Notes: generated from the letters alone by a model not told the origin. A DNA stretch of 64,000 bases from an uncultured Oscillospiraceae bacterium (GCA_947587025.1 CANPXW010000002.1:3567-67566), one strand, 5' to 3'; shown: positions 19,492 to 35,397, numbered from the stretch's first letter. A program made the numbers and translations.

Positions 19492-20295
19492 TCACCACAG
19501 CTTGGCGAGCATGGCGGCCCAGGTCTCGGCGCCCACCACGCCGTCCCACTGGCTGCTGTCGCCGGGGAACAGGGTCTTCTGCAGCTTGACCACCGCCTGC
19601 CCTGTGCAGGCGCCGAAGTCCCCGTCCACTTCGATGGCGCGCCCGGCGCCGTCCCGCACGTTCCGGGCGTACAGGATGCGCTGCAGCGTCTTCACCTCCG
19701 CGCCCCTGCACCCGGAGCTGAGCTCATGCGCCTTCACCGTCAGCTCTTTGCCGTACTTCTCCGCCGGCGCGGCCGTGCCGGCCGTTTCGGTGTACTTGGG
19801 GTGGCCGTAGCCGCCGATGTAGCTGGAAGAGCGGCTGTAGGTGTTCTTCTTCACCATATTGGAGCTGTTGCCCTCCACGGTGACGATCTGGGAGCTGGTC
19901 ACCTCCACCACGATGCCGGTGTGCACCAGGCTGCCGTTCTGCTGGAAGAACACCTGATCTCCCACCTTGGGGGTCTTATCGTACCGCCCCTGGGCCTTGT
20001 AATAGCCTGCGCTGTAGGGGCACGCCGCCCCCAAGGTCCCGGTCTGGCACTCCGCCAGCTGTCCCTCGGTCTTGCCGAAGGCCTTATAGAAGCACCAGTC
20101 CACGAACACGTCGCACCAGGCGTAGCCGTTCTTGTTGCCGTTGTAGTACCCGGCGCTGAACAGGTCGCGGGCGTACTTGGTCCAGTTGCCTGTGCCGGCG
20201 TTGGCGGAAGCCAGGTCCAGGCTGGCGTTGCTGGCCTTCTCTTTGTACCCTACCTCCGCCAGGGCGATGGACACCACAGCCGCCGCGTTACTCAT
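19492..20295 (-). CDS. Phage endolysin: N-terminal CHAP amidase/peptidase plus C-terminal peptidoglycan-binding domain
   Basis: CHAP Cys context GYAWCDVFV and His context LVHTGIVV. PG_binding_1-like C-terminus (GAEVKTLQRIL...VDGDFG). ATG 20295 lies 9 nt after GGGAGG and overlaps the holin stop by 8 nt. Confidence 0.85.
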   Translation of the reverse strand: MSNAAAVVSIALAEVGYKEKASNASLDLASANAGTGNWTKYARDLFSAGYYNGNKNGYAWCDVFVDWCFYKAFGKTEGQLAECQTGTLGAACPYSAGYYKAQGRYDKTPKVGDQVFFQQNGSLVHTGIVVEVTSSQIVTVEGNSSNMVKKNTYSRSSSYIGGYGHPKYTETAGTAAPAEKYGKELTVKAHELSSGCRGAEVKTLQRILYARNVRDGAGRAIEVDGDFGACTGQAVVKLQKTLFPGDSSQWDGVVGAETWAAMLAKLW

Positions 20296-20716
20296 GGTCT
20301 TCACCCTCCCTGCTCCTGCCGGACAGCACGTCCACCGCGCCGGTCACAGCGGCGGGCAGAGGCAGGCCCATGAGCCCGGCGTTCTCCACGATGGACAGCA
20401 GCTCGTTGGCGCAGAAGCCCGCGATCACCCCGTCCCGGATGTACCCCGTGCCCAGCAGCAGATCCAGCCGGGCGGCGATGAGCACCACCAGCACGGTCAT
20501 CCCCTTGCGGCACAGGCCCTTGAATCCGGCCCGGCTCTCCAGAGCCCCGCCGCCGGACTTGGGCGAGGCGTGGAACACCCCCGCCACCACCAGTCCGGAC
20601 ACGTAGTCCGCCGCCATGAAAATGAGCAGCGTAGCCGCAGCGGCGTCCCAGCCGCCCAGCAGAGCGCTGGCCGCCCCGCCGATGGCGCCCGCCGCCGCGC
20701 AAAATACCTTCTTCAT
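20288..20716 (-). CDS. Phage holin (holin_4/TcdE-like family)
   Basis: Three TM segments. MAADYVSGLVVA and ELLSIVENAGLMG motifs typical of this holin family. GAGGAGG ribosome-binding site. Confidence 0.8.
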   Translation of the reverse strand: MKKVFCAAAGAIGGAASALLGGWDAAAATLLIFMAADYVSGLVVAGVFHASPKSGGGALESRAGFKGLCRKGMTVLVVLIAARLDLLLGTGYIRDGVIAGFCANELLSIVENAGLMGLPLPAAVTGAVDVLSGRSREGEDHE

Positions 20717-20910
20717 CCAAATACCTCCTCATTCCGCGCTCGCGCGCATCTGTTTTCCTCCGCCGGCTCGTATACCCGGCACGCCTCCCCCGGCGGACAG
20801 GGCCGCCGGCGGCCGGTGCGCAGGATATACACGCAGGCCCGCAGCAGCTCCTCTCCGTCCCCTATGTACACCGGTATGGAGAACCGGCATCCGCCGCATT
20901 TATCGTCCAT
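20713..20910 (-). CDS. Small Cys-rich hypothetical phage protein (65 aa)
   Basis: ATG 20910 preceded by GGTGAGAG. ATGA overlap with the holin start. Contains CGGC and three further Cys. No family recognised. Confidence 0.4.
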   Translation of the reverse strand: MDDKCGGCRFSIPVYIGDGEELLRACVYILRTGRRRPCPPGEACRVYEPAEENRCARARNEEVFG

Positions 20911-20923
20911 ATCTCTCACCTCA

Positions 20924-22729
20924 CTAGGCCGTTCGCCGCCAGCAGTAGGCGGCGATATACGGCGGCATATTGTTGTGCGCCTTTCCGCCGCCGGTCGCGT
21001 TCGTAGAGCCATATGCGTTGCTGCCCGCGTAGTCGGCGCACTGTATATCCGAAAGATTGTCCCGGCATATCCGCCAATACTCGCGCAGGCTGTGCGTGTG
21101 GGACGGCATCTCCGAGACCGTCAGCTTATGGGTCGCCTCGCCGCCGGTCGCGCCCGCCTTGTATGTGCTCCCCGCCGCCAGCACGAACCGGTCCTTGACC
21201 TGCGTCCACTCCCCGCCGAACAGCGCCGCCGGACTGGTGTCCTTTTCAGACCAGTAATAGCTGCCGACAGGATAGATGAAGTCCCGCAGCACGTCCTTCG
21301 CCGTCTGGCTCAGAGCCGGGAAGCCCACCGGCACGTTGAACCGGAAATCATCCTCGCCCCAGTCGAACACAGGCACGCCCCTGTTGAGGGTGAGGGTCCT
21401 GGTGAGGCTCGTCAGCCTGTCCGAGGCGGTCACGGTGATGGAATAGGCGTTGGTATACGCCAGCTCGGACAGCGTCACGGAGGCGGACCAGGTGTTGCCG
21501 TCCCTGACGGTCTCCAGGTCCACATCGCCGCCATCGTCCACTCTGTAGCGCACGGCGAGGGTGTTGTCGGCCGCGCCAAAGGAGCCGCTGAACCAGTTGC
21601 CGGAAAGGGTGAGCACGGCGGTGTTCTCGGTGGGCCCGGTGCGAAGGCAGGAGCCGACGACGGTCAGGGGGATATACTCCACCACCGCCGGCGACACGGT
21701 GGTCTGGGCTGAAAATCCACGGCTGTCTGTAGCGGCGAAGACGAACGAGCCGCTGGTATCGCCGGGATAGTCCACGTACCCGTCCCCCTCCACCGCCGTG
21801 CCGTTGACAGACCGCGCCCGGATGGACGCGCTGTTTCTGGCCGTGGCCGTGATAGAGGCCCTGGCCGTGGAACAGCCTCTGACCAGCACGGCGCTGTCGC
21901 CGGTCAGGGCCGTCGTCACGTCGTTCACGTCCTCCACCCTGCCGCTCACGGTCGGCCCTGACAGAGCGGCCGTGGTGGTCACGGTGATGCTCGCGGTCTT
22001 GGCGCTGCCCAGCTTCGCGCCGCTGGCCTGGTAGGTGGTGATGGTCAGCGTGCACTTGCCGGAGGAGGCGTTGGGTATCTGGTCGTAGAACGCCGTGGGC
22101 ACGGTCCAGTTGACCGTGGTGTTGGAGAACTTCACCTCGGTCGCGCTCACGCCGCCGGCGGCGGTGACATAGCCGGTGAGCGAGCCGAAGGCGTACTTGA
22201 TGGAGTGGGTCGTGTTGGAGACGTTCTTGCTCACCACCAGGGTGGACGCCGCGCCGATATTGGCGTCCGTACCGGACACGGAGGATCCCCTGGGGATATT
22301 GGTCAGCTTGATGGTCGCGCTGCCGTTGATGGTCCATCCGGAGTCCGCGCCGCCGCTGGTGATGTAACCCCGGACGCTGTTGAAGGCGATGGTGATGCTC
22401 TTGGTGCCGTCGGCGTTATGGGCGATGCCTTTTTGGGTAAAGGAGGTCGGCCCCTTGGTCGGGGCCAGCCAGGTGTTCATGGAGCTGGTGTATATCCCAT
22501 AGCCGCCCTGCGCGGAGGACATGCTGGCCACCGTGGTGCCGTCCACCGTATAGCTGCCGTTGAAGTAATAGGTCCAGCCGTACCAGGCGGTGTTCTTGTA
22601 CTGGGGATAGATGGTGACGTTGGAGGTGTTGGTGTCGATGTCGTATGTCTCCACCCACCGGAAGCGCCCCTTCATAAAACCGCTGCCGTACTCGCCGGTA
22701 TAGCCGCTCAGCCCCGATCTCATAGCCAT
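20924..22729 (-). CDS. Phage tail fibre / receptor-binding protein with a collar-like C-terminus
   Basis: The C-terminus GGEATHKLTVSEMPSHTH...GKAHNNMPPY resembles the phage tail collar motif. The N-terminus is beta-rich and Ser/Thr-rich. Start at ATG 22729 after GAGGGGGAAG. Confidence 0.7.
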   Translation of the reverse strand: MAMRSGLSGYTGEYGSGFMKGRFRWVETYDIDTNTSNVTIYPQYKNTAWYGWTYYFNGSYTVDGTTVASMSSAQGGYGIYTSSMNTWLAPTKGPTSFTQKGIAHNADGTKSITIAFNSVRGYITSGGADSGWTINGSATIKLTNIPRGSSVSGTDANIGAASTLVVSKNVSNTTHSIKYAFGSLTGYVTAAGGVSATEVKFSNTTVNWTVPTAFYDQIPNASSGKCTLTITTYQASGAKLGSAKTASITVTTTAALSGPTVSGRVEDVNDVTTALTGDSAVLVRGCSTARASITATARNSASIRARSVNGTAVEGDGYVDYPGDTSGSFVFAATDSRGFSAQTTVSPAVVEYIPLTVVGSCLRTGPTENTAVLTLSGNWFSGSFGAADNTLAVRYRVDDGGDVDLETVRDGNTWSASVTLSELAYTNAYSITVTASDRLTSLTRTLTLNRGVPVFDWGEDDFRFNVPVGFPALSQTAKDVLRDFIYPVGSYYWSEKDTSPAALFGGEWTQVKDRFVLAAGSTYKAGATGGEATHKLTVSEMPSHTHSLREYWRICRDNLSDIQCADYAGSNAYGSTNATGGGKAHNNMPPYIAAYCWRRTA

Positions 22730-22742
22730 GTTTTCTTCCCCC

Positions 22743-24905
22743 TCAGATATAGAAGCAGCCCGTCCGGTCGTTCTCGTACCGCTCGAAGCGGGCATGGGCG
22801 ATGATCAGATAATTCTCCGCCGTCAGGTCTCTGGCCGTGACGCCGCCGGCGTCGGCGGTGAGCATGGTGTCGTACTCGTCGGTACTGCCGGCCTGATACC
22901 GGCGCACCTGCATGCCGGTGCTCTGGATGACGGTGGCGATCTGGGAATTGGCCTGCCATATCTGCAGTCCGTCCTTGTTGAAAGTAAAGCCGTTGGAGGT
23001 GGTGACCTGGTCCACCTCCTGCTCCCGGAACAGGATCTCCAGCTGGGAGGCACGCTGCTCCATGGCGGACTGCCAGGAATAGATGTTGTCCAGGTTGGCG
23101 GCGGTCTGGGACACCTGCTGGGTGATGCGGTCCTGGAGGATATTGATGTCGGAGGCGTTTTTGACCACCGTCTCCTGGATGCCCTCCAGCGCGCCGTTCA
23201 CGGCGCCCTGGGCGACGCCGGACATACAGTACATCCCGGCGTATCCCACCGTGCCGTCCGCGTATGTGATCTTCTGCCGCGTCCAGAGATAGTGCTCCTC
23301 TGGCACGTCGCCGGGCAGCGTCTCCGACCACTGGGCGTCCACCGGCTGTCCGGTGGCCTCGTCCAGGGCGTTGGATACCGACAGGGTATACTCCGCCGTC
23401 ACGGAGCTGACCGCCTGGCCGGACAGGGTCTGCACGCCCTCCACTGCGGCGGTGATGCGCTCCCGGAGCACCTCCATGTTGGAGGCCAGCTCCGGCAGGC
23501 CCTCCACCCGTGCCTGCTCGAAGGTGCCGAACTTCACCCAGTCCGCGCTCAGCCCCTCGGCGCGGATGATGCCCATGATCATCTCCCCGGTGACGGACAG
23601 GCCGAATGGCCAGCTCTCTCCCCCGTCGTCGGAAAAGCCGATGGCCTGGGCCGTGAGCTTCATCACGCTGCGGGACGCGGCCAGGGTGGGCTTATCGTGC
23701 AGATAGTACACGACGCTGCCGTCCTCCTGCTCCTGGGCGGTGCTGTAAAGCCCGCCGCTTTCTGCCAAGGTCCTGGCCAGCTGGTCCACCGCCGTCTGGC
23801 GGGCGGTGCGCTCCCGCTCCACCAGCTTTCGCGCCGCCAGCCGGGCACGGCTCTCCGGCGTCACGTAGCGGCTGCCGTTGCGCACGGCCGGCTCCGCGCT
23901 GTTGGAAAGGGACGTGTAGCCGCCCACGGCGAAGCCCACGTCCGTCAGCACGCTTTTATAGGTCCGTCCCTTCCGGTCCCGGACCAGCACCACGTCCATG
24001 AACTCCGCCATGGGCAGCGCCGCGTGCTCCCCCTGGAAGGGCCGGAAGGGCAGGCCCACCAGCCCCGCGCCCATCAGCGCAAGGGCCGCCTGCTCTCCTC
24101 CTGTAGGCACCAGCGGATTCTCCACCGCCAGCACGTACCCCTCTTCTCCGTACAGCACCGTCCGCTCCGTACCGTCCTCCCCGTCCACGGCCATGGAAAT
24201 GCCTGTCACGATCACGTCGTCGGTGCCCGCCTCCAGGCTGCCCCACTCCGTCAGCTCCAGCGCCGGCTCCGCCGCCATATCATAGGGGATGATGCGCAGC
24301 CGGCCGGTCCGGTCCACACGGGCGCTGCCCCCGGCCAGCATGGCTGTCCAGCCCAGCACCTGCCGGCAGGTGCATTCCCCCTCCGGGGCCGCCTGCACCA
24401 GGTACCCGTCGTTGGGGAACGCCGCCGTATCGTATCCGATGCCGCACCGCTGGCAGACGTCCCGGAACATGCTCCCCAGGGTGGCCGGGAAGGCCAGGTC
24501 CGTCTCATAGTCCCGGTCGGCCCGGTACATGTCGTCCCAGGCGGTCACCGTCACGGTCTCGCCCAGGGTGGCCGGCTCCACCGCCGTGAAGGTGCCCAGC
24601 TCCACCCTCTCCGTGCTCTCCGCAAGCTCCAGGCTCAGCCACACCCGGAACCGCGCGCCGAAAAAGTCCGTGCCGTCCAGGTGCCCGTCGTCGTTGACCA
24701 GCTCCAGCCGCATCTGCCGGCACACCGCCGCCCCCAGGGGCAGGCCGGTGGTCCCGGCCCCGTCTGTGAGGCTGTTGCCCGATATGGTGAAGTCCTCCCC
24801 GTCCAGCGCCAGCTCCGTGCCGTCCGCCAGCGCCGCCTGGGCGAACAGCCGAAAGTCGCGCCGCTCGGCCATCACTTCTTTGAACTCTTCGCTGACGGCG
24901 ATCAT
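22743..24905 (-). CDS. Phage tail tip / tail-associated (endopeptidase-type) protein
   Basis: 720-aa protein after the distal tail protein, with a central coiled-coil region. Position and size fit Tal-like proteins. ATGA overlap with the upstream gene at 24902-24905. Confidence 0.7.
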   Translation of the reverse strand: MIAVSEEFKEVMAERRDFRLFAQAALADGTELALDGEDFTISGNSLTDGAGTTGLPLGAAVCRQMRLELVNDDGHLDGTDFFGARFRVWLSLELAESTERVELGTFTAVEPATLGETVTVTAWDDMYRADRDYETDLAFPATLGSMFRDVCQRCGIGYDTAAFPNDGYLVQAAPEGECTCRQVLGWTAMLAGGSARVDRTGRLRIIPYDMAAEPALELTEWGSLEAGTDDVIVTGISMAVDGEDGTERTVLYGEEGYVLAVENPLVPTGGEQAALALMGAGLVGLPFRPFQGEHAALPMAEFMDVVLVRDRKGRTYKSVLTDVGFAVGGYTSLSNSAEPAVRNGSRYVTPESRARLAARKLVERERTARQTAVDQLARTLAESGGLYSTAQEQEDGSVVYYLHDKPTLAASRSVMKLTAQAIGFSDDGGESWPFGLSVTGEMIMGIIRAEGLSADWVKFGTFEQARVEGLPELASNMEVLRERITAAVEGVQTLSGQAVSSVTAEYTLSVSNALDEATGQPVDAQWSETLPGDVPEEHYLWTRQKITYADGTVGYAGMYCMSGVAQGAVNGALEGIQETVVKNASDINILQDRITQQVSQTAANLDNIYSWQSAMEQRASQLEILFREQEVDQVTTSNGFTFNKDGLQIWQANSQIATVIQSTGMQVRRYQAGSTDEYDTMLTADAGGVTARDLTAENYLIIAHARFERYENDRTGCFYI

Positions 24906-25279
24906 AGCGGGTCCACTCCTATCATGTTGAAGCTCAGCTCGTCCACGGTCTCCTCCTCGGCGTTCAGCCGGCCGATGGAAAGGGACCCCTTGCCCACGTA
25001 GAACCGGCCGTCCCGCCACCTGCCGTAGTGCAGCGAGTAGTAGTGCAGCGTGAAGGGCCGTCCCCGGTCCACGATCTGCAGGATGCGGCTGACCTCCGCC
25101 GCCGGCAGCCAGCTGGCCTTGTAGCTGAGCGACTCCACCGTGAACATGGCCGAGGCGTGCAATGTGCCGCTCTGTACGCGGGTGGAGTCCTCCGTATAGG
25201 TGGTCTCAAAGTCATAGCCCAGCCCCTCGTCGGGTTGGGCTATGAGCGTACCGTTCAGTTTGATGTATTCCTGCGCCAT
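24902..25279 (-). CDS. Phage distal tail protein-like component
   Basis: 125-aa ORF directly after the tape measure gene, with a GGGAGG ribosome-binding site. The call is by position. Confidence 0.55.
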   Translation of the reverse strand: MAQEYIKLNGTLIAQPDEGLGYDFETTYTEDSTRVQSGTLHASAMFTVESLSYKASWLPAAEVSRILQIVDRGRPFTLHYYSLHYGRWRDGRFYVGKGSLSIGRLNAEEETVDELSFNMIGVDPL

Positions 25280-25282: not shown

Positions 25283-27760
25283 TCAACCTCCCAGCAGAAA
25301 GGGATTTTTCCCGCTCTGGCCCCGCCGCAGCTGGGCCTCGTCCAGCACCTGGCGGAACAGCACCTTCCTGTCGATCTGCCCGATGAACGTATACTGGGCC
25401 TGTCCGCTCCGCCCCTGACCGCCGGCCAGCAGCTGCCGCAGCAGGCTCTCCGTCCCGGCCAGGCCCTGTACCGGTCCGTCCGCGTATAGCGCCCTGGGCG
25501 GGATAACCGTACCGGAGGCCATCACCGGCGTCGGTGCCCGCCCGATGGCAAGCCCCAGCCGGTCGATGGACACGGCCAGCTCGCCCAGCCTGTCCGCCAC
25601 AGCGCCCAGCCTGCCAGGCCGCTCCTGTCCTTCCAGCAGCTCGGCCAGCCGTCCGGCCACCGCGTCTATCCACTGGGTGTGCCGCTCCAGAGGGATGATG
25701 GCCTCGCGCCCTGCCTCCCCGGCGCCGATGAGGGTAGCCCCGTCCACGATGCCGCCCCTTTTGTACCAGTCCACCGACAGGCGGGGCACCGAGAGCGGCG
25801 AGAGACTGAACTGGCCGGAGATGGAGAAGTGGGGCAGTTTGATGTTGGGCAGGCTCCAGCTGAAATCGAAAAAGCCCTTGATGGCGTCGATGGCGCTGCG
25901 GACCTTCTGCTTGGCTTTGTCCAGCTTCTCCGCGATGGCGGAGCGGATGTTCTCGAAAATGCCGGTGACGGACTTCCAGGCTGCCGTCAGCTTCTCCTCC
26001 ACGGCGCTGCGGATGCCCTCGAACTTCTCCGTCACCGCCTGCCGGGCTGAAGTGACAGCGGCGCTTATCCGGTCCCTGATCGCGCCGAACACGCTGGAGA
26101 TCTTCGTCCACACAGCGCCCGCCTTATCGCTCACGGCCTGTTTTATCTCGTCCCACTTCTGGCTGATGTACGTCCTGACCGCGCTCCAGATGCGGACGGT
26201 GGCCGCCTTGATCTCATCCCACCGGGCCGCCACCGCCGCCGCCAGGGATGCCGCCGCCGCGATGACAAGGGGTATCCACGTCCCGGTGAGCAGGCTGACA
26301 GCCCCGCCCAGCAGCATGATGCCGCTCACCAGCGTGCCCAGGCCCTGACCGGTCAGCTCCCCGGTCTTTATCCACTCCTTCAGGGACGTGACCACCATAG
26401 CCACCGCGCCGATGATGCCTCCCGCCGCGCCGCCGACCATGCCGAACTGCAGCGCCAGCCCGCCGGCCAGCGCCGCCGTACCGGCCAGCTGCTCGGCCAG
26501 CGTCCCCCAGCTGGGGCCGTTGGCCCAGGCGTCCGTGGAGCCCTTGGCCAGCAGCACCGCGCCGCCCGCGTCCAGCGCCAGGCCCGCCGCCGTTTTGAGG
26601 CTCGCGCCCAGGCTCCGGGCCAGCTTCCAACTCAGCAGCCCCGCCGCGACGGCGGTCACCGTGTCCAGGATGCCGTCCATGTGCTCGGCCAGCCACCCGA
26701 TCTTCTCGGCGAAAGCCGGGTCGATGGGGACCTCCTCAAAGGCGAATCCGCCCCCGTCCTGAATATCCAGCCCGCCGCCGGCCCCGGAGCCGCCTCCCCC
26801 GCCGGAGGAGCCCCCGCCGGAGCCTGCGCCCTCCTGCTTCACTTTCCATATGTTCATCTCGTCCAGTCCGGACAGATTGCGCTCGGCGTCCTTCACCGCC
26901 TTGCCGATAGTCCGTATGCCGCCCACGGCCGTATCTGCCGCGCCGGACACGCCGTTGATGGCCCGGACGGTCTTGCCGCCGAACGCGTCGGTCTCCACAG
27001 ACGCCACCTTCACCGCCTCGCCCAGCTGGGCCACTCCGCCGGCGGCGGTGCCGGCCGCGCTGCCCACGGCGGAGATGCCAGACGCGGCGGAGGACGCGCC
27101 GGTGACCACCCGTTTATAGGTGCTCTTCCCGCTCAGGAGGGCGAAGAACATAGCCACGTAGTTGGCCGCCGTGACCAGCATGGAACACAGCCGGCTCAGG
27201 GCCGGAGCCACTGCGGCGGCCACAGGAGCGAAGGCCGTCACCAGCGCGCCCTGCACCCCGGTCAGCGCGCCGCGCAGCTGGCCCAGAGAGGCGGCCGCCT
27301 CCCGGTCACAGGCCGCCAGGCTCTCCATGCCCTGGCGCAGGGTACGGCCGAACCCGGCGCACAGCGCGGTCAGCGCCTGCAGGCCCATGCCATAGCGCGC
27401 CAGGCCGCCCAGACCGCCGGCCAGCGCCAGACCGGCCGCGCCCAGGGCAAGATCGGTCTGATTGAGCCCGTCGGCGGCGGAGCCGGCGCTGCCGCCCAGG
27501 CTCTCCAGCTCTTTTCCGAACCGGACCGTATCCGCGCTCCGGGCCTTATCCGTCAGCGCATCCACGCCGTCCGCCAGCGTGCGCATCTGCCGCCCGGCGG
27601 AACGCGCCGTCCGGTCTATCCGCAGCCGGGCCACGTTTTTGCCCATCCGGGAGGCCGCCTCTCCTGCCCGCCGGCAGCCGGCCTCTATATCGCCCACGCC
27701 CCGGTCCACGTCGCCGGTCTCAAAGCTCACTCTGATGATAACGGAGCCGTCCTCCGCCAT
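25283..27760 (-). CDS. Phage tail tape measure protein
   Basis: 825 aa, Ala/Gly-rich helical repeats, hydrophobic central segments, canonical position after the chaperone pair. Confidence 0.85.
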
Positions 27761-27773: not shown

Positions 27774-28337
27774 TCACACAAATAGTTTCTTCAGTGCCGC
27801 GCGCTGCGCCTCGTCCTCCGGCGTCCGGCGCTTGTGCAGCTCCACCAGCGCCCGGTTCTCCTTCAAAAACTCCTGCTCGTATTTCTCCAGCTTCTTTCCC
27901 TTAGCCCGCTTCTGCCGCAGGCCCAGCACCGTGCTGAACAGGCACTCCCCCAGCTCCATGTACGCGCCCAGGAACGTCCACCAGTGAATGTACTCCGCCG
28001 CCCGGACCTCCTGTCCAAGGACCCGGTTCACCGCCGGAATGATGATCGGCCCGTCCTGCTGCCAATCCACCAGCCGGGGGCTGCGGCGCTTTCCGTCCAC
28101 GGGCACGCCGCCGTCGATGAACCCCACCGCCGCGTCCACCGCCGCCTGCTGCAGCTGCTGCGGGATGCTCTCCCAGTCAGGGTACATCACTCGCAGACAC
28201 ACCGCCGCCTTCTCGTCCGGCTCATACTCTGGGTCCGCGAACACGTCCAGCAGATGCAGCACGTCCCGGAAGTCCGTCCGGATGGCATAGGCCCTCCCGC
28301 CTACGGTGAGCTCCTTCGGCAAGCGCCACAGGCTCAT
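27774..28337 (-). CDS. Phage Gp15-family protein (second tail-assembly chaperone position)
   Basis: MSLWRLPKELTVGGRAYAIRTDFRDVLHLLDVF resembles the bacteriophage Gp15 family. ATGA overlap with the preceding ORF. Confidence 0.6.
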   Translation of the reverse strand: MSLWRLPKELTVGGRAYAIRTDFRDVLHLLDVFADPEYEPDEKAAVCLRVMYPDWESIPQQLQQAAVDAAVGFIDGGVPVDGKRRSPRLVDWQQDGPIIIPAVNRVLGQEVRAAEYIHWWTFLGAYMELGECLFSTVLGLRQKRAKGKKLEKYEQEFLKENRALVELHKRRTPEDEAQRAALKKLFV

Positions 28338-28762
28338 TTCCGGTATCCGGCGGTGGCCTTGTTGATCCTGGCCAGCTTCTTGTCCAGGCGCTTCTTGGTG
28401 GTCTGCTCGATGAGCGAGCCGATGCCCTCCAGCACCTTCTCGAAGAAGAAGTCCCCGTTCTTGGTCACCGTCAGGGGCCCGCACTTGGCGAAGATGCCCT
28501 CGGACACATGGCCGCCCAGCAGCAGGTCGAACTGGCCGGCTATGTCGTCCGCCAGCTTGTTCATGGCCTCCAGCTGCTGCTCGTCGCTGCCGGTGCCGTC
28601 ATAGGAAAGGCTGTTGAAAAAGTCCACCGCCGCGCCGTAGCGCTTGAGGATGTTGGAGTCGGTGGGATTGAAGTCGAAGGAGCCGATCACCTGGCCCCGC
28701 TCGTCCTGCACCTCTACCGTGACCGCCCCGGTCTCCACCTGCAGCTTCATCACGTCTGCCAT
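28334..28762 (-). CDS. Phage tail assembly chaperone
   Basis: 142-aa acidic protein between the major tail and Gp15/TMP genes. ATG 28762 follows AGAAAGGAG. Confidence 0.55.
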   Translation of the reverse strand: MADVMKLQVETGAVTVEVQDERGQVIGSFDFNPTDSNILKRYGAAVDFFNSLSYDGTGSDEQQLEAMNKLADDIAGQFDLLLGGHVSEGIFAKCGPLTVTKNGDFFFEKVLEGIGSLIEQTTKKRLDKKLARINKATAGYRK

Positions 28763-28826: not shown

Positions 28827-29354
28827 TCAGCCGCCGACGCCGGGGATCGCACCCTCGGTGAAGGTGGGATTGCCCGTCTTCATGCTCTCAGCGGACACAT
28901 AGCCCTTCTGGCTGTCCCCGTCCTCGCTGACGGTGAAGGGGATGTTGAACCCCTCGGTGGAGCCGCCGTAGCTGTTGGGCTTGACCATCACCTCACGCAG
29001 CCACGCCAGGTGGTTGGCCGCCTCGGTATCCTCCACGATGACCTCCAGCATCAGGGTCTTGCACTCGTCGCCCTTGAGCCTGCCCATGGCGATGTCCCGC
29101 AGCTTGGGGTACAGCTTCTTGTCCGGGTCGGCATAGAAGGGGTCGGCCTCCATGCTGGGGGTATAGCCGTTGTCCTTCGTCTTGGTCTGGCCCAGGATGT
29201 TCTTGATCTGCTCGGTGTCGGAGTTGAGCTCCACGCTCATCTCCTCGATGTCGTCGCCGATGATCTCAAACTGCGCCTCGGCCGCCTCGCTGACCTTGGT
29301 GTGGAAGTCCGTGTCCAGGTAGTGGCCCAGGGCCTCACGGTTGAGCTTTGCCAT
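28827..29354 (-). CDS. Phage major tail protein
   Basis: 175 aa (MAKLNREALGHYLDTDF...). Position is upstream of the chaperones and TMP. GGAGGT ribosome-binding site. Confidence 0.7.
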   Translation of the reverse strand: MAKLNREALGHYLDTDFHTKVSEAAEAQFEIIGDDIEEMSVELNSDTEQIKNILGQTKTKDNGYTPSMEADPFYADPDKKLYPKLRDIAMGRLKGDECKTLMLEVIVEDTEAANHLAWLREVMVKPNSYGGSTEGFNIPFTVSEDGDSQKGYVSAESMKTGNPTFTEGAIPGVGG

Positions 29355-29370: not shown

Positions 29371-29880
29371 TCAAAGATAGAAAATGTTCTCATACCGGGC
29401 GGCCATCTCCACCGCCCAGGTCTCGGTCTGATGCTCGTCCCGCTGTGCAAGGCAGGCGGGGCTCTGGATGGAAAAGCCCAGCAGCCGCCTTCCTCCCGCC
29501 AGCGGGGGATATGTCTCCAGCCGGTACGAGCCGCCGTCCGCCGTCACCGGCTGGCGGCCCAGCCATCGGCCCAGTGCGTCCAGCCGCTCCTTCACGGCGG
29601 ACCGGCTCTGTTCGGTCAGACCACCGCCCCGCCACACCGCCGCGAAGGGATACCGGCACACCTGACGCACCCGCCCGGTGACGGAGCGCGTCTCGCTCTC
29701 GATGACCGCCCCGTCTCCGGGGAACATGGCCATGCCGTCCCCGGCCCCCAGGGTGGCGAAGGCGAACCGCTCCGCCGGTCCCAGGCCGGGGTATTCGTCC
29801 AGCAGCCGGCATATGACGCCGGTGAGCGCCTGGGCTCCCTCCGGGTCATACCGGAGCTGCTCCTTTTTATTTTCCGCCAT
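29371..29880 (-). CDS. Phage head-tail joining / tail completion protein (minor capsid-type)
   Basis: Positional call; intact 169-aa ORF overlapping its upstream neighbour by 14 nt. Confidence 0.45.
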   Translation of the reverse strand: MAENKKEQLRYDPEGAQALTGVICRLLDEYPGLGPAERFAFATLGAGDGMAMFPGDGAVIESETRSVTGRVRQVCRYPFAAVWRGGGLTEQSRSAVKERLDALGRWLGRQPVTADGGSYRLETYPPLAGGRRLLGFSIQSPACLAQRDEHQTETWAVEMAARYENIFYL

Positions 29881-30337
29881 TGATGATCCTCTGCACCTCG
29901 CTCGTCCAAACACCGATGCGCCGGGCCTTGGCGTTCTCGAACCATGCCGGCTGGGCTCCTGCGGCGGAGTAGCGCAGGGGCCTGTCCGTGACGGTCAGGC
30001 TTGCGCCCCGTGCAAAGCGGGGCCCCACGCCGGGTATCATGGCCGGTCCCCGGCCGGTGGCGGCGTCCGCCATCGCCCGGCCCCGGTAGAGATACCGCCC
30101 CATGGGCCCCACGCCGGCGTAGATATGCCCGGACCCTGCTATGGCGGCGTTGGCCGCCCTTGTCCGCTCCCGGAAGCCGCCGGTGCGGGCGGGCATGTAG
30201 GGCAGCATATCCTCCGCCGCCATCTGATGCAGCCTGACATAGGCCCTCGTGGCCCGCACGGAGGGCCTGGTCATATCCAGACGTGCCCGCACGCCCTTTT
30301 CCGTCAGGGAGAACCCCTTGAAATGGATACCGCTCAT
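29867..30337 (-). CDS. Phage minor capsid / head-tail joining protein
   Basis: 156 aa. LPYMPARTGGF-type segment as in minor capsid proteins of A118-like phages. Positional support. Confidence 0.5.
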   Translation of the reverse strand: MSGIHFKGFSLTEKGVRARLDMTRPSVRATRAYVRLHQMAAEDMLPYMPARTGGFRERTRAANAAIAGSGHIYAGVGPMGRYLYRGRAMADAATGRGPAMIPGVGPRFARGASLTVTDRPLRYSAAGAQPAWFENAKARRIGVWTSEVQRIINGGK

Positions 30338-30780
30338 CTTCCAGTTACCTCATAGTGCGGCAGCGCGTCGTACCGGCATACGGAGGCCACGGCGAACACC
30401 CCGTCCCTCGTCCGGGCCATATAGCCGTAAAAGCCCCCGTTGTAGTCCTCGTCCGCCACCGGGTCGGTGCTCTGCCAGTCCTCCGTGACGAAGAAGTCGA
30501 AGTCCTCGCCCCCGGCGAAGGTGAGGTACATCTCCGGCGTGTCCACCCGCCGCCACAGCTTTGGCGGCAGCACCAGCTTTCCGGCCACGGCGGGCGCCCC
30601 TTCCAGCCGGATATAGGGGATGAGCACCGCCGCTCTGCAGTCCCGGCTCCGTCCGTATCCGGCCTCTCCGGCGGAGAAGGATGCGTCCACATGCACCCCC
30701 TCGATCACGGTGGGATACCATACGGTCTTCCCGTCCTCCGTCCGCCGCCGGTCAAACACCGTCACCACGTCCTCATACAT
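30334..30780 (-). CDS. Phage head-tail adaptor protein
   Basis: Positional call; 148-aa ORF from ATG 30780, overlapping both neighbours. Confidence 0.45.
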   Translation of the reverse strand: MYEDVVTVFDRRRTEDGKTVWYPTVIEGVHVDASFSAGEAGYGRSRDCRAAVLIPYIRLEGAPAVAGKLVLPPKLWRRVDTPEMYLTFAGGEDFDFFVTEDWQSTDPVADEDYNGGFYGYMARTRDGVFAVASVCRYDALPHYEVTGR

Positions 30781-31228
30781 CGCGTCTGTCCCCCACCGCA
30801 GGGTATCGCCCCGCATACAGCAGATTCACCCCGTTTGCGTCGGGCACCCCGGCCAGGTAGCGCTCCACGGTCCGGGCCAGCGCCGCCTGCCGCTGCTGCT
30901 CCGACGCTGCGGCGGGAGCGGCGTAGCTGACCGACTCGCTGCCGGCGGTGACCGCCGTCACCACCCGCCCGGCCACGCTGCCGTCGGCCCTCTTGGCGTA
31001 TCCCTCCGCCTGCTCCTGCTGCCACAGCAGATGCACCAGCGCCGCCTGGCACCGCTCCACCGCCTGCACGGCGGCGCTCTCCTTCGGCGGGGCGGCGGTG
31101 AGCTTGCACACCCCGTCCACGCCGGTGGCAGCCTGCTCCATCACCCGCCGGGCCTCCCAGCCGAGCCGGTCAAAGCCGCTCTCATCCGGCCCATCCGGGT
31201 ACAGGGCCGCGTACTGCGCCCAGTTCAT
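30773..31228 (-). CDS. Phage head-tail connector (gp6-like) protein
   Basis: 151-aa ORF immediately after the major capsid gene, with a TGATG junction at 31226-31230. Confidence 0.5.
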   Translation of the reverse strand: MNWAQYAALYPDGPDESGFDRLGWEARRVMEQAATGVDGVCKLTAAPPKESAAVQAVERCQAALVHLLWQQEQAEGYAKRADGSVAGRVVTAVTAGSESVSYAAPAAASEQQRQAALARTVERYLAGVPDANGVNLLYAGRYPAVGDRRDV

Positions 31229-32085
31229 CACGCGCCGATGGTGGCCTTGACGATGCCGTCCAGCTTCTCGGCCAGCAGCCGCATGCCGCACACCACCGTA
31301 TCGGCGGCGGTCATGTTGGCGTAATCGGCGGCCTCATGGATGCCGATGTAGCCGGTGTCGTCGCTGGTGAAATCGAAGGCCTCGCCCAGGTCCGCCCCGT
31401 TGACCGGCACATAGTACAGCACCAGATTGTCCTTGGCGGTGGCGTAGATGGTGCCCTTGGGCACGGAGCTGTTGAGGATGACGGTGCCCAGGCCCATGAA
31501 GCTGTCCACGTAGCTCAGCCCGAAGGCGGTCTGCATGGCGATGGGGGCGCTGGCCAGGTAGTCGGCCGCGTCCAGCGGGTTCATGAAGTACACGCAAGGC
31601 ACCGCGTCGTCGTCGAACAGCACCTGCAGCTGTCCCCAGGCCTGGGCGATGGCGGCCTGGAAGGTCTCGCCGGAGGCGGTGCCGGTACCGGTGCCCAGAA
31701 AGTCGAAAAAGTCCTTGCGGACGGTCTTCTGCACGTCCCGGAGCATCTCGTCGGTGACCATATCCACGGCCTGGTCGTAGCCCCGGTCGATGATGGCCTC
31801 GGCGGTGGCGGCCTTGCGCCACTTCTTGAGGGTGATCTCGCCCACGTCCACCGCCTCGGTCTGATAAAGGCTCAGGGGGATGGTCTCGCCCTCTGCCACG
31901 TCGCCGGAGGCCAGCGTGCCCTTGGCCTTGTAGCTCTTGAGCACGGCGCCCGCCTGCTTGGGCACCTTCCGGGTCACGCCGATGGCCTCCATGAGCTTTC
32001 CGATGGACCCGGCGAAAGCGGACACGAACTCGATCTCCCGCACCCGCGCCAGGCTGCTCTCCTGGATGATGTTTTCCTCTGCCAT
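31228..32085 (-). CDS. Phage major capsid protein
   Basis: 285 aa. Position after the scaffold gene. AAAGGAGAAG ribosome-binding site. Sequence style matches A118/SPP1-type coat proteins. Confidence 0.8.
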   Translation of the reverse strand: MAEENIIQESSLARVREIEFVSAFAGSIGKLMEAIGVTRKVPKQAGAVLKSYKAKGTLASGDVAEGETIPLSLYQTEAVDVGEITLKKWRKAATAEAIIDRGYDQAVDMVTDEMLRDVQKTVRKDFFDFLGTGTGTASGETFQAAIAQAWGQLQVLFDDDAVPCVYFMNPLDAADYLASAPIAMQTAFGLSYVDSFMGLGTVILNSSVPKGTIYATAKDNLVLYYVPVNGADLGEAFDFTSDDTGYIGIHEAADYANMTAADTVVCGMRLLAEKLDGIVKATIGA

Positions 32086-32100: not shown

Positions 32101-32382
32101 TCAAAATAAGTCCAGATTGTCCGCGATAGCCTGCCGGCGGCGGGACCGGTCGGGGATGGCCATGATCTGCTCCCGCGTCAGGCTCCCGTCCCCCTCCGGT
32201 CCCAGCCGGTCTGTGAACCGCACCCCGCCGGACTGCCGCCAGGCGTAAAAGGCGGCCAGCTCCTTCTCGTCGGGGTACTTTTTCCGTTCCCTGGCTAGGC
32301 GCTGGGCGATGAGCCCATCCACCTCCGCCTGGGTGAACGTCTTTTCCTGCTGCTGTGCAGCGGTGTCGGTGGTCTGTTCCAT
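32101..32382 (-). CDS. Phage scaffolding protein
   Basis: 93-aa helical, charged protein (QAEVDGLIAQRLARERKK) between the portal and capsid genes. Confidence 0.6.
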   Translation of the reverse strand: MEQTTDTAAQQQEKTFTQAEVDGLIAQRLARERKKYPDEKELAAFYAWRQSGGVRFTDRLGPEGDGSLTREQIMAIPDRSRRRQAIADNLDLF

Positions 32383-32395
32383 ATGGTCTCCCCGT

Positions 32396-33778
32396 TTAAG
32401 GCCCGTCGGCCGTAAGATCACACTCCATCGGCCTGGCCGCAGCCTCCACGGCCTTAGCCTGCTCTTCCGAATACCCCTCGAACTTCGTCAGGTAATACCA
32501 GAACGGGGCCTTCCCGTCGGCCACGTACCCGTACCACCGGGCCCTGTCCTCCTCCCGGTTGTAGGTCACGTCCCCGAAGTCATAGACCGCCTCATACGCC
32601 CCCGCCGGCGTGAGGGCGTACCCCTCCGCCAGCCGGTCCAGGGCGTAGATGAGCCCGTCCAGCGCCGTCTCCAGCTTGTCCCGCACATCCTTTACCAGCT
32701 GCACGGTCCGCCGGTCGTCGGCCTCCACCTGGGTGGCGGTGACCAGGCCGGAGCGCTGGTTGAACACGAAATAGCCGTTGGAGAACCCGCACTTGAAGCC
32801 GATCTGGCTCAAAAGGGCGTCTATCCCCTTCAGCCGCGTCTCGGTGTTCAGCGCCGGGTCGATCTCCTGGTAATACTCCGACGCGCCGGAGCCGAAGGCC
32901 CGCTTGATGAACCGGGGCAGCTTTATCCGCCTGGCCGCGCCCACCGGCACGCCGGCCTGCTCGGTGAGCCGGTCGTCCAGCAGTGCCAGCCGCCGGCTGT
33001 CGTAGATCTCAGAGGCGTTGCGGCTGTAGGCCACATCCAGGTCCCGCAGCTCCTCCAGCGCGTCGGCGAACACCGGCAGCCCCATGGGCGAGGCCGGGTC
33101 CAGATAGTTGGCCGCCGGCATGCGCAGCACGCCGAACAGGGGCCGCTCCACCCCCTCGGCGATCACGTCCTCCGCCAGGGCCGCCCAGGGCGTGGCCTCT
33201 ATAGCCACTTCCCTGCCCGCCTCCGACGGGGAGTCCGCCATCAGACACCGGTTGGACACCCCGTACCGCCCGTCGGGCAGAAAGCGGTGATACTCCATCC
33301 GGGTGAAATACTTCCCCCGCTGCTGATCGTACCGGCGGGAGAAGAACACCGCCCCGGTCACGCTTCCCCCGTCGGTGTCGGTGATGAAAAACTGCTCCGG
33401 GGTGAGCAGCTCCACGTCCCTGCCGTTGGGCTTGAGGATGACCGTGCCATAGGCGCAGCCCTGCTCCGCCCAGTGGCGCAGGCTGAAATAACACCGGTCG
33501 ATCTGCTGCTGCAGCCACGCCGCCCGCTCCGTGCCGCCGCCCACGGTCACCCCTGCCGCCAGCACGGCCAGCCGGGCCGTCTCCGAGCATATGCTCCGGG
33601 CCATGCCCACCGTCCGTATCTGGTTTTCCGGGTCCTCGTCCAGCCATTCCGGCCTGCCCCGGTACACCGCCGCGCACCGGCGCAGCAGCCGCCGGGTCTG
33701 CACGCTCTCCAGCGGCCGCACACCGAACACCTCCCGCGCCTTCGCCTCCAGCGCTCCATAGTCTCTCGCATCTCTCAT
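32396..33778 (-). CDS. Phage portal protein (SPP1 Gp6-like)
   Basis: 460 aa directly after terL, with an ATGA overlap at 33775-33778. Confidence 0.85.
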   Translation of the reverse strand: MRDARDYGALEAKAREVFGVRPLESVQTRRLLRRCAAVYRGRPEWLDEDPENQIRTVGMARSICSETARLAVLAAGVTVGGGTERAAWLQQQIDRCYFSLRHWAEQGCAYGTVILKPNGRDVELLTPEQFFITDTDGGSVTGAVFFSRRYDQQRGKYFTRMEYHRFLPDGRYGVSNRCLMADSPSEAGREVAIEATPWAALAEDVIAEGVERPLFGVLRMPAANYLDPASPMGLPVFADALEELRDLDVAYSRNASEIYDSRRLALLDDRLTEQAGVPVGAARRIKLPRFIKRAFGSGASEYYQEIDPALNTETRLKGIDALLSQIGFKCGFSNGYFVFNQRSGLVTATQVEADDRRTVQLVKDVRDKLETALDGLIYALDRLAEGYALTPAGAYEAVYDFGDVTYNREEDRARWYGYVADGKAPFWYYLTKFEGYSEEQAKAVEAAARPMECDLTADGP

Positions 33779-35013
33779 GCCATCGCACCTCGTCTGTTGA
33801 ATAGTGATTCATAGGCGTACCGCAGGGCGGATATGGCGTGGTCGTCCCTATCCGGATACCCGCTGATGAGGTTCCCCTCACTATCCCTGGCGTACTCATA
33901 CCCGGCCAGTTCCCGGTACGCATTGGGCGTCCGTACCGGGTCGGCCACGATGGTCCGCCCCTGCAGCCACTTGAAGCCGTAATCCACGCTCCCCGGTCCC
34001 TTCACCGCGCCCCGTGCCGGCAGGCCCATATCCCGCCAGTCGGCGACGCTCTTTGGCTCGGCGCTGTCGCACACGATGGGGTAGTCGCCGTAGCCCTTGT
34101 CCAGGACCCACCGGGCCGTCTCCCGGTTGCTTTTGCAGTTTACATAATATTCATCCAACAGGTATATCCGCTCCTGCGCCGCGTCGTATGCCGTGCGCAG
34201 GAAGGCAAACTTGTCCGGGTACCAGCCCCAGTCCGCCCCCTGGAAGATGCGGTCGAACCGGGCCAGCTCTTCGTCGGAGATGGCCCGCGCCTCCAGACGT
34301 GTGAATACGCTGGCCCCGGTGCCCACAGCCTCGCCCAGGTACTCGTGCCGGTATGCCCGCTCGTCCCGGGCCCGCAGCCGCTCCGCCTCGGCAAAGAACG
34401 CCTCCCCCAGCCACGCCCTGGGCGCGTCCAGGTAGGTGCTTTTGTGCCGCAGCCGGTCCGGCCGGTCCTCCAGCGCATCCCGGTTGGCCCAGTTGTCCCG
34501 GGATATGGGTGGGTTGTAGCTCTCGAAATTCCAAAAGAGCTCCCCGCCCCGCATGGTGGACTGCAATATGGAGCGTATCTCCTCCCTGCCGGCGAACTGG
34601 TCCTTCTCCTCGAAATGGGTCACGGCGATGTATCCGAAGGGGACCTTGAGGGACTTCAGCTTCATGGGGTCGTCCGCTCCCCGGAAGAGGATGCGCTGCC
34701 CTGTGGGCCGGTATATGAGCTCCGGCGGCGACATCCTGGCCTCCCACAGCGCCCCCATCCCCAGCTTGTCCACGGCCCACATGTACTGGGCGAACACGCT
34801 GTCCCGCAGGGTGTTGCCCACCTTGCGCAACACCAGCGCGTGGGCCTCCGGGTGCTGCACCAGCAGCAGCGGCACAAAAAGGGAGACGGCGGAGCTCTTC
34901 AGGCTCCCCCGTCCCCCGCTGAGATCGTAATGTGTATGTCCGTGCCGGAACACGTCCCGTTCCAGCTCCAAAAACGCGGGACCCAAGAGCTCCCGCAGCC
35001 TGATCTCACCCAT
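33775..35013 (-). CDS. Phage terminase large subunit (PBSX-type)
   Basis: Walker A-like GGRGSLKSS; C-terminal nuclease region with conserved acidic residues. 8-nt overlap with terS. Confidence 0.9.
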   Translation of the reverse strand: MGEIRLRELLGPAFLELERDVFRHGHTHYDLSGGRGSLKSSAVSLFVPLLLVQHPEAHALVLRKVGNTLRDSVFAQYMWAVDKLGMGALWEARMSPPELIYRPTGQRILFRGADDPMKLKSLKVPFGYIAVTHFEEKDQFAGREEIRSILQSTMRGGELFWNFESYNPPISRDNWANRDALEDRPDRLRHKSTYLDAPRAWLGEAFFAEAERLRARDERAYRHEYLGEAVGTGASVFTRLEARAISDEELARFDRIFQGADWGWYPDKFAFLRTAYDAAQERIYLLDEYYVNCKSNRETARWVLDKGYGDYPIVCDSAEPKSVADWRDMGLPARGAVKGPGSVDYGFKWLQGRTIVADPVRTPNAYRELAGYEYARDSEGNLISGYPDRDDHAISALRYAYESLFNRRGAMA

Positions 35014-35347
35014 CCACGATCACCGTTACCGGCTCGCAACCATCCTCCGTTTTCTCCTTGGGATGCTCCTGCCACTTGTCGCCCCGCCGGTTGTTCAGCC
35101 AGTACATCTGGGCCCGCAGGTCGCCCCCCAGGGCCTTGTCCAGCAGCGCCGCCTCCACCTGATAGTCCACCAGCTCCCGGCCTTTGCGCAGCGCCTGGGC
35201 GATCTGGGGGTACTTCTTCTGCCATGTATAGAACGTGCTCAGGCCGATGCCCATCTGCCCGGCGATCTGCTCTCTCGTCATACCGTCCCTGGCCCAGCCC
35301 TCCAGCAGGGTCAGCCCGTCCTCCTCCAGCCACTTTTCCGCTCTCAC
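35006..35347 (-). CDS. Phage terminase small subunit (HTH)
   Basis: 113 aa. HTH segment MTREQIAGQMGIGLSTFYTWQKK. GTG start with GGAGGTGGA about 10 nt upstream. Confidence 0.75.
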   Translation of the reverse strand: MRAEKWLEEDGLTLLEGWARDGMTREQIAGQMGIGLSTFYTWQKKYPQIAQALRKGRELVDYQVEAALLDKALGGDLRAQMYWLNNRRGDKWQEHPKEKTEDGCEPVTVIVDG

Positions 35348-35365
35348 CGACCCCGTCCACCTCCA

Positions 35366-35397
35366 TAAAAAGACCCCGGCGGTGTCCCGCCGGAGTC
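35366..35397 (-). terminator. Intrinsic terminator about 20 nt upstream of the terS start (downstream of the LRR lipoprotein gene)
   Basis: The minus strand reads GACTCCGGCGG GACA CCGCCGGGGTC TTTTTA: an 11-bp stem with one G-U pair. Confidence 0.75.

Follow-up and report, generated by a model that had tools for sequence, protein, structure and literature searches.

Is a phage gene cluster that holds structural and lysis genes, with no recognizable lysogeny or replication functions, a prophage in decay or a particle-producing locus kept by its bacterial host? This question is raised by 64,000 nt of DNA from an uncultured Oscillospiraceae bacterium (GCA_947587025.1 CANPXW010000002.1:3567-67566; hereafter the window, to which all coordinates refer unless a locus number, such as L024, precedes them). 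The window carries 19 co-oriented open reading frames (ORFs) on the minus strand, running uninterrupted from the small terminase gene terS (35006-35347) to an endolysin gene (19492-20295). An initial annotation, whose ORF set from terS to endolysin was recovered here unchanged, had favored a domesticated morphogenesis and lysis locus over a decaying prophage, and this view is supported by the intact ORFs, by low ratios of nonsynonymous to synonymous substitution rates (dN/dS), and by proS-linked orthologues in 12 metagenome-assembled genomes (MAGs). With a probability of about 0.72, we read the cluster as the complete late operon of a temperate siphovirus of the SPP1/PBSX terminase type, which would have lost its early half in an ancestor of rabbit-gut Oscillospiraceae and been kept by purifying selection as a particle-producing element resident in the host, in the manner of gene transfer agents (GTAs), VSH-1, and PBSX.

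Conservation of the element in gut Oscillospiraceae

When a single representative genome of each GTDB species was searched with the large terminase TerL, 68 loci were identified, mostly in MAGs of rabbit-gut Oscillospiraceae. A tblastn synteny map separated them into two groups: class 1, in which terS is at least 72% identical to that of the window, and class 2, in which it is 30–34% identical. The same late-operon-only element was present in about 20 species-level Oscillospiraceae MAGs, with host genes adjoining both ends. ProS (84–94% identical) is encoded 135–1760 bp upstream of terS, with no phage genes in between, in 12 MAGs (L002-L007, L014, L016, L021, L025, L027, and L058). YabP-DivIC takes the place of ProS in four loci (L008, L010, L011, and L012), an LRR/fn3 surface protein lies upstream in L001, and L026, where terS identity is 55% and the leader preceding terS is the same, has rplM-rpsI upstream.

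Full-length views of four other class-1 species revealed an identical gene order, the holin-endolysin pair being followed by different host genes in each, so that the ydcF junction of the window is lineage-specific. No YdcF homologue in the relatives adjoined the element, including in a MAG with a proS-linked copy, and no sequence conserved across species was found after the endolysin gene. The orthologous position between ydcF and proS that the initial annotation had envisaged thus holds on the proS side, in the 12 species-representative MAGs, but not on the ydcF side. Outside the clade, none of 80 metagenomic outgroup loci (ProS identity 68–83%) had the element downstream of ProS. The element is clade-restricted, old, and selectively kept, and it is not immobile.

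Intactness and selection

In the 20 class-1 loci examined, all cluster genes read through as single, full-length ORFs, even though protein identity falls to 26–60% for some. For scale, 3.1% of random substitutions in the cluster genes create a stop, and 0.1 neutral substitutions per site would yield about 49 stops over 15.7 kb. Pairwise NG86 estimates of dN/dS were 0.05–0.3 for terS, terL, portal, the major head protein (MCP), the major tail protein (MTP), and Dit, and 0.2–0.6 for most other cluster genes, including Tal and the receptor-binding protein (RBP); the highest value, 0.85, belonged to the tape measure in the window-L058 pair, in which just 59% of the protein aligned. ProS gave 0.08–0.2. 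The ratio was below 1 in every gene (mostly 0.05–0.6), as the initial annotation had expected of a domesticated locus, and the frameshifts or stops that it had named as signs of decay did not appear, all genes being intact in all loci examined.

Within a given pair of genomes, synonymous divergence (dS) of the cluster genes ranged from about that of the neighboring proS to roughly double it, as predicted by co-divergence with the chromosome. Between L003 and L005, dS was 0.26 for ProS and 0.26–0.38 for cluster genes (terS 0.26, terL 0.36, MCP 0.29), while between L007 and L014, it was 0.16 for both ProS and portal. The ProS tree shares several clades with the TerL and portal trees (Mantel r=0.46, p=0.002), and the comparison suggests that inheritance was partly vertical, with exchange too.

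Gene content and borders

Gene calls were made by searching the 19 ORFs against PHROGs, Pfam, and NCBIfam profiles; all calls of the initial annotation were confirmed in this way, and no hidden regulator was seen in the cluster.

35006-35347, minus strand: terS, small terminase, 113 aa (phrog_309, 1.8e-36; N-terminal helix-turn-helix (HTH) domain HTH_23, 26.2 bits against a gathering score of 24.6)
33775-35013, minus strand: terL, large terminase, 412 aa (Terminase_3, Terminase_3C; PHROG terL match)
32396-33778, minus strand: portal, 460 aa (phrog_533, 7e-79; A118-type portal below cut-off)
32101-32382, minus strand: short scaffold-like protein, 93 aa (weak N-terminal matches to scaffold PHROGs)
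31228-32085, minus strand: MCP, 285 aa (phrog_544, 1.7e-50)
30773-31228, minus strand: head-tail adaptor (phrog_541)
30334-30816, minus strand: head-tail region protein (phrog_3366; intact and conserved in all loci)
29867-30337, minus strand: minor head/connector protein (phrog_556; confined to type-A elements)
29371-29880, minus strand: tail completion protein (phrog_3266)
28827-29354, minus strand: probable MTP (phrog_3099; role from position)
28334-28762, minus strand: tail assembly chaperone-like protein (phrog_11299)
27774-28337, minus strand: Phage_Gp15-family tail protein (PF06854, 6e-17; phrog_706)
25283-27760, minus strand: tape measure, 825 aa (phrog_1535, 1.6e-51)
24902-25279, minus strand: Dit-like distal-tail protein, 125 aa (phrog_1194; role from position)
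22743-24905, minus strand: Tal-like tail protein, 720 aa (phrog_6616, 2e-125)
20924-22729, minus strand: tail/receptor-binding protein (RBP), 601 aa (DUF859 and Gp10_C)
20713-20910, minus strand: 65-aa ORF rich in Cys (CGGC...C...C...C), placed between tail genes and holin
20288-20716, minus strand: holin, 142 aa (Phage_holin_4_1; TIGR01593, 71.9 bits, above cut-off; phrog_199)
19492-20295, minus strand: endolysin, 267 aa (CHAP and PG_binding_1)
19449-19475, minus strand: intrinsic terminator closing the operon (11-pair stem, then CCATTTTTAT)

The junctions reported by the initial annotation were exact (ATGA at 20713/16, 24902/05, 28334/37, and 33775/78; TGATG at 31228), and the remaining intergenic gaps measure -44 to +64 nt. 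The terS product is 72–90% identical to its class-1 orthologues (dN/dS about 0.1) and aligns over 97–100% of its length in the other class-1 loci; that of L026 alone is truncated and HTH-less. TerL scored 103.4 bits against TIGR01547 (PBSX family), the cut-off being 105.05. Across loci, identity is 75–87% for the MTP (dN/dS 0.05–0.3) and 66–88% for the Dit-like protein; the Tal-like protein varies between species (26–72%), and the RBP is swapped for a Peptidase_S74 protein in L079 and L425. No sheath or baseplate-wedge gene was matched in the cluster with PHROGs or Pfam, the set comprising the tape measure, Dit-like, Tal-like, and Gp15 proteins; the tail is predicted to be non-contractile and of siphovirus type.

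A programmed G/GT frameshift leading from 28334-28762 into the Gp15 gene was considered and rejected, as no convincing slippery site was present; the ATGA overlap between the two genes suggests simple coupling. The 65-aa ORF had no family match in the profile searches and is kept at the same position in other loci; tblastn placed relatives of it in the early regions of class-2 loci (e.g., L024:5216-5419 and L023:1109-1333). A non-homologous but equivalent terminator lies 3' of the endolysin gene in L076-L079.

ORFs of the families named by the initial annotation were placed at both borders, as follows.

35477-36847, terS-side flank: LRR_5 (leucine-rich repeat) lipoprotein
36993-38423, terS-side flank: ProS
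18651-19436, lysis-side flank: DUF218/YdcF
16801-18675, lysis-side flank: ABC-F

Pfam scans of all other large ORFs of the 64 kb detected only host genes, with no integrase, recombinase, replication, Rec, or phage-repressor gene. The claim that all such genes and methylases are missing from the window was thus correct for the phage-type genes but not for methylases, given the HsdM N6-methylase at 60869-62365, part of the type I restriction-modification system that the same annotation had mentioned. No exact direct repeat of at least 9 bp was common to the two immediate flanks, in line with the earlier failure to see flanking repeats, and the GC content judged host-like by eye is indeed so (cluster 0.668; flanks 0.655 and 0.637; window overall about 65%), as is the GC at third codon positions (GC3). 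Co-resident prophages are lower in GC than the element, whose GC equals that of the host. The only tRNA gene in the window is 10 kb from the cluster.

Two further regions of the window were considered. The ORF at 39964-40860, between RsmG and the gene divergent from ProS, encodes an HTH protein of the XRE family (298 aa at most, counted from stop to stop); it had no tblastn counterpart in 12 syntenic loci and matched only generic HTH families in NCBIfam, and it was set aside as a regulator of the element for these reasons. A Fic-domain protein, HsdM, and HsdS (type I restriction-modification) lie at 59746-63507, 24 kb from the cluster, with a GC content of 0.45–0.50, and appear unrelated to it.

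A conserved leader upstream of terS

A non-coding leader of about 125 bp (35348-35469) precedes terS and is conserved in all 19 aligned class-1 loci. Conservation begins abruptly at GAAAATGATAA, irrespective of the upstream gene, and with this leader the functional unit reaches 35469, beyond the end initially set at 35397.

35459-35469, minus strand: leader box 1 (GAAAATGATAA, of which AAATGATA is invariant in 19/19 loci; sharp 5' limit of element conservation)
35446-35452, minus strand: leader box 2, GAG(G/A)CGA (invariant alignment columns; 7 nt past AAATGATA)
35421-35426, minus strand: -10-like hexamer TATCAT (TATnaT in all loci, alignment columns 54–59, often preceded by TGn, as in an extended -10)
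35365-35399, minus strand: leader intrinsic terminator (13-bp GC-rich hairpin and U-tract, between the -10-like site and the terS ribosome-binding site)

Box 2 occupies the place of a -35 element, is unlike TTGACA, and may be a candidate site for an activator or an alternative sigma factor. A GGCAC..TGAAA stretch is also conserved in the leader. The hairpin has a minimum free energy of -25.9 kcal/mol in the window and of -21 to -30 kcal/mol in 19/19 loci when each sequence is folded separately, with stems of 10–15 bp; compensatory stem changes are seen in L003/L006 (three pairs), L004, and L005. An Rfam scan of the leader gave only sub-threshold chance matches. It should be noted that the consensus scan fails to call the hairpin, which we ascribe to greedy extension of the stem through G-T pairs that consumes the U-tract.

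There is no promoter-like sequence between the hairpin and the start codon, and in several loci the upstream host gene is followed by a terminator of its own; any operon transcript must therefore pass the leader terminator. The operon is thus probably off by default and in need of a trans-acting activator or antiterminator, a gate that would be logically like that of lambda Q at tR'. Class-2 leaders have the same layout, made up of an ATGA(T/G) box, -10-like site, GGCA..TG.AATA stretch, and hairpin, and are homologous in part, while the class-1 boxes (AAATGATA ... GAGRCGA) do not match what class 2 has at that position. A search for the leader pattern in IMG/VR gave 101 matches, none adjoining a terS or terL relative, and these were read as chance. 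The combination of conserved boxes, -10-like hexamer, and covarying terminator is newly described here.

In L026 (1775-1978), TerS is reduced to 67 aa, its N-terminal HTH gone, and the leader is retained; the non-coding DNA upstream contains three CTCC(T/C)G(A/G)TATCTC-like direct repeats.

Complete temperate relatives

Three MAGs with a proS-linked element also hold a second, class-2 copy (L003+L024, L006+L023, and L014+L037). L024 is a complete temperate prophage with genes for a serine integrase, CI-like repressor, and replication initiator, as well as for a late transcriptional activator of 136 aa (phrog_36/248). Past the activator gene come a promoter-like site, a hairpin, and then terS, and the class-1 element starts exactly past the activator point. 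Homologues of the activator are encoded directly upstream of terS in nine class-2 loci; none was found in the window or in any class-1 locus. The initial annotation had considered a complete relative prophage from which the early region was recently deleted: complete relatives with an early region do exist, but as separate prophages at other sites.

The structural proteins are 44–87% identical between the classes and terS 30–34%. Class-2 phages encode a gp7-like minor head protein (414-559 aa) and a scaffold of 187-213 aa, whereas class-1 elements have no gp7-like protein and a scaffold of 81-125 aa (93 aa in the window, about half as long as in complete relatives); both differences may bear on capsid size. 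In L077, the portal-MCP interval contains only a 189-aa ORF with a PBECR2/3 nuclease domain. An IMG/VR search with MCP and TerL retrieved only mosaic relatives from lower-GC hosts (TerL at most 70% identical, MCP 74%), the MCP matches lying on contigs of up to about 43 kb; the closest viral records have no more than TerL or MCP in common with the element.

A different arrangement was seen in the class-2 locus L019 (7695-9826; MAG Lapin-032__bin100), where two genes immediately precede terS, one of the HTH+Peptidase_S24 (CI/LexA-like) type and the other a late-activator homologue, with host genes just past this pair (acetyl-CoA hydrolase, DUF4015). L019 may represent a PBSX-style switch with a late operon, i.e., an intermediate stage of domestication.

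Boundaries of the element

A short interval separates the leader from the host gene upstream of it, and the insert found there differs in nearly every species: the LRR lipoprotein in the window (35477-36847), an extracytoplasmic function (ECF) sigma factor with its anti-sigma factor (L016:8118-9468 and L025:8045-9395), a 150-aa unknown protein (L002:9026-9481 and L021:8917-9375), a membrane protein (L027:8855-9298), or low-GC cassettes encoding a tyrosine or serine recombinase and the same STAS/kinase-like gene (L008:3146-5685 and L011:7336-9540). The left boundary thus behaves as an insertion hot spot. The recombinase genes of L008 and L011 were rejected as an integrase of the element, since they belong to low-GC cassettes with a shared kinase-like gene that are missing from the near-identical element of L012. 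Reciprocal junctions were also observed: DivIC/CBS and ProS/element in the window (44478-45284 and 36993-35348), and DivIC/element and ProS/CBS in the MAG of L012 and L242 (L012:9058-9487 and L242:6001-8035). These swapped junctions point to recombination right at the left boundary.

At the lysis end, L078 has an entire tRNA-Ser(GGA) gene on the opposite strand (15957-16049), 75 bp past the endolysin gene, and a fragment resembling a tRNA 3' end, GGCGGAAGCGGTGGGATTCGACC, is found at the same place in L076 (about 15640-15680); the window has nothing comparable. An original attachment site in a tRNA gene may have left these pieces behind. In L425 (10375-17772; same species as L008), a DivIC-linked type-B copy, the 65-aa ORF is followed not by holin and endolysin genes but by a 1183-aa FIVAR surface protein and an NTP_transf_2/HEPN pair; its lysis genes may be elsewhere or lost.

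Proposed mechanism and points against it

In the mechanism we propose, the half encoding the integrase, repressor, replication functions, and late activator was lost and the late operon retained, which the leader terminator would keep off by default by blocking transcripts. A trans factor encoded elsewhere, either an activator or antiterminator reading the two boxes or a host signal, would allow read-through in a subpopulation of cells. TerS and TerL would then fill capsids by headful packaging, tails would join, and holin and endolysin would free the particles. Because the element can neither excise nor replicate, the packaged DNA would have to be chromosomal, and because TerS retains its HTH, packaging may begin at a preferred site rather than at random.

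Several observations weigh against this reading. HTH_23 of the window TerS is above the gathering score, unlike in TerS of the RcGTA type, and the closest viral relatives of TerL and MCP (70–74%) have genomes of 40–46 kb, so that the head may be full-sized and not, as in the classical GTA hallmark, too small for its own locus. The leader promoter was assigned by resemblance only, being missed by a consensus scan and having no -35. The window and L058 carry a type-A cluster, yet their ProS groups with that of type-B carriers, which implies some allelic replacement or recombination. Within the clade, ProS has no element downstream in the MAGs bearing a DivIC-linked copy, in a MAG where only a class-2 copy was found, and in a fourth MAG whose element status is undecided; one type-B copy (L425) is missing the lysis cassette. 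All genomes are MAGs, which leaves room for a distant regulator or early region, and for the window locus and its orthologues alike, particles, packaged DNA, and transfer are predictions from the genes.

Alternative explanations

The element could instead produce PBSX-like killer particles, that is, a bacteriocin released by lysis and directed at receptor-bearing competitors, with packaged DNA being incidental and not productively delivered. Such particles would fit the PBSX-like architecture of late operon plus lysis genes, the near-threshold similarity of TerL to the PBSX-family terminase, and the distal tail genes (Tal and RBP), which are the most variable (dN/dS 0.3–0.6) and show the DUF859 versus Peptidase_S74 replacement expected in receptor arms races. 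However, constraint is strongest on terS, terL, and portal (dN/dS 0.05–0.3), which is hard to explain if packaging is irrelevant; moreover, the tail is of the non-contractile kind (tape measure, Dit, and Tal, with no sheath gene found), and no adjacent switch of the xre/xpf type was found. We regard this explanation as rather unlikely.

Another explanation, which we hold to be unlikely, is a helper-dependent late module that stays silent until a temperate phage of the same family, co-resident or superinfecting, supplies its late activator or antiterminator and that then contributes structural proteins or competes with them. Instead of a GTA under host control, it would be a hitch-hiker or decoy, or would store tail and host-range genes. 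The element has no activator of its own, three MAGs hold it together with a class-2 prophage, and class-2 leaders share its layout and partial homology, with the late activator directly upstream; structural proteins 44–87% identical across the classes would suit this explanation. Against it, the class-1 boxes are unlike the class-2 sequence at the same position, and terS is just 30–34% identical. Furthermore, most element-bearing MAGs show no class-2 copy (MAGs being incomplete), and a dS equal to that of proS together with conservation over about 20 species fits selection at the level of the host.

It is likewise doubtful that the element is an engine dedicated to in situ packaging (lateral transduction) rather than a GTA that packages at random. 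In such a scheme, the HTH-bearing TerS would read a pac site in or near the leader or terS, and full-size headfuls of about 35–45 kb would be filled processively from a fixed chromosomal point; the first would hold the 16-kb element and about 25 kb of downstream host DNA, and later ones successive chromosome segments. The on-switch would be a trans antiterminator acting at the conserved leader terminator. If true, this could explain the phage-less packaging of about 35 kb of Oscillospiraceae DNA in gut viromes, as well as the species-specific lysis flanks and the exchange of cluster alleles at a conserved proS anchor.

A functionless cryptic prophage remnant, whether recent or decaying after deletion of the early region, is very improbable and is effectively refuted for the clade as a whole. 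Lysogeny and replication genes are absent, the tRNA-Ser of L078 and the tRNA 3' fragment of L076 beside the lysis end resemble old att sites, and single relatives are without the lysis cassette or have a truncated TerS. Decay is contradicted by the 19/19 intact genes of the window and by the intactness of the genes examined in 20 loci at 10–50% protein divergence, when some 49 stops are expected per 0.1 neutral substitutions per site, as well as by dN/dS well below 1 in every gene, by a leader conserved with compensatory changes, and by a left boundary identical in all loci.

Other assignments were discarded. An intact temperate prophage does not agree with the lack of int, repressor or antirepressor, and replication genes in the 64 kb or with the lack of flanking repeats, L024 having all these genes; a phage satellite or capsid-forming phage-inducible chromosomal island (PICI) would not have the full head, tail, and lysis set, and int and rep genes were not found; and in a tailocin, terS, terL, portal, and MCP would not all be present as the most constrained genes. 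Finally, an assembly or binning artefact that fused phage and host contigs is next to negligible: every sequence is a metagenome assembly, but the YdcF-endolysin junction was recovered in three independent sample assemblies and the ProS-leader junction in 12 MAGs from different samples, and both GC and GC3 are host-like.

Relation to reported packaging

GTA-like packaging has been described as prominent in Ruminococcaceae and Oscillospiraceae (PMC12946183). The same study characterized FpGTA, a podovirus-like, two-locus GTA of Faecalibacterium, and observed uniform 34.9-kb packaging of an Oscillospiraceae genome with no induced phage; in the Oscillospiraceae MAG examined (Onthomonas), the operon was not identified (PMC12946183). 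Two recent virome studies have reported abundant GTA-like or phage-less (about 35-kb) packaging of Oscillospiraceae DNA without finding the genes responsible (PMC12946183; bioRxiv 10.64898/2026.07.08.737213). A mouse study reported no cluster in Pelethomonas and, in Coprocola, a 14-kb terS/terL cluster with a separate lysis cluster. The initial annotation knew of no described GTA in this clostridial lineage, a statement that is dated, given the GTA-like packaging in Oscillospiraceae and the Faecalibacterium operon, the Oscillospiraceae locus not having been found in that work (PMC12946183).

No description of this element family was found in the literature. Judged by its genes, the family is a good candidate for the source of the reported Oscillospiraceae particles, and it offers a concrete, sequence-defined, and testable one. 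The series seen within one clade, from complete prophage (L024) through repressor, activator, and late operon (L019) to late operon only (window), should be useful for studying phage domestication. Even if inactive, the element would clearly illustrate how selection can retain a 16-kb phage late operon over a long time.

Comparison with known systems

Two features by which GTAs are recognized are seen here. The locus is a structural phage cluster without integration, replication, or lysogeny-control genes, and it is maintained by the host, with 12 proS-linked and about eight other orthologues under purifying selection, tree congruence being partial and the right junction unconserved.

VSH-1, the GTA of Brachyspira hyodysenteriae, resembles the element by description: it spans about 16 kb, has its head, tail, and lysis modules in one orientation, lies among ordinary bacterial genes, and lacks integrase, replication, and repressor genes. 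Its host is a spirochaete, from an unrelated phylum, and it has been shown to package 7.5 kb of random host DNA, whereas particles of the element are predicted from genes; the HTH-bearing TerS and the conserved terminator-containing leader further set the element apart.

PBSX of Bacillus shares the late operon with holin and endolysin, the fixed chromosomal position, the inability to replicate, and particle production that would kill the producer, and its terminase family is the one that TerL nearly reaches (TIGR01547, 103.4 bits versus 105.05). In contrast, the tail of PBSX is contractile, and genes for an xre repressor and Xpf sigma-like activator lie next to its operon, while the element has a siphovirus-type tail and no xre/xpf-type gene was found between ProS and terS or in the flanks. 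Because of this tail and the missing switch, the element is not a PBSX proper.

The RcGTA-type GTAs of alphaproteobacteria are similar in having a structural cluster of about 15 kb, regulation from elsewhere, and conservation across species under purifying selection. They differ in a TerS without DNA-binding domain, unlinked lysis genes, and a small T=3-like head, in place of which the element has a TerS with HTH_23, lysis genes within the operon, and an MCP with relatives in phages of 40–46 kb. Since TerS keeps its HTH, the element does not qualify as RcGTA-like.

FpGTA is closer in setting, as a phage-derived, structural-only locus found across species of gut Oscillospirales and proposed as a source of GTA-like packaging (PMC12946183). 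It is podovirus-like and split into loci of 10.5 kb and 5.5 kb, unlike the single 16-kb siphovirus operon described here; its TerS is devoid of a DNA-binding domain, and each particle contains about 8.5 kb.

Last, the class-2 loci L023 and L024 and Blautia phage Montmirail (ON453898) possess features that are absent or shortened in the element: a serine integrase and CI-like repressor, a replication initiator and late activator, a gp7-like minor head protein, and a full-length scaffold (187-213 aa). They nonetheless resemble it in TerL (57–74% identity), MCP (72–76%), and MTP (81–87%), and have the same layout of promoter, hairpin, and terS.

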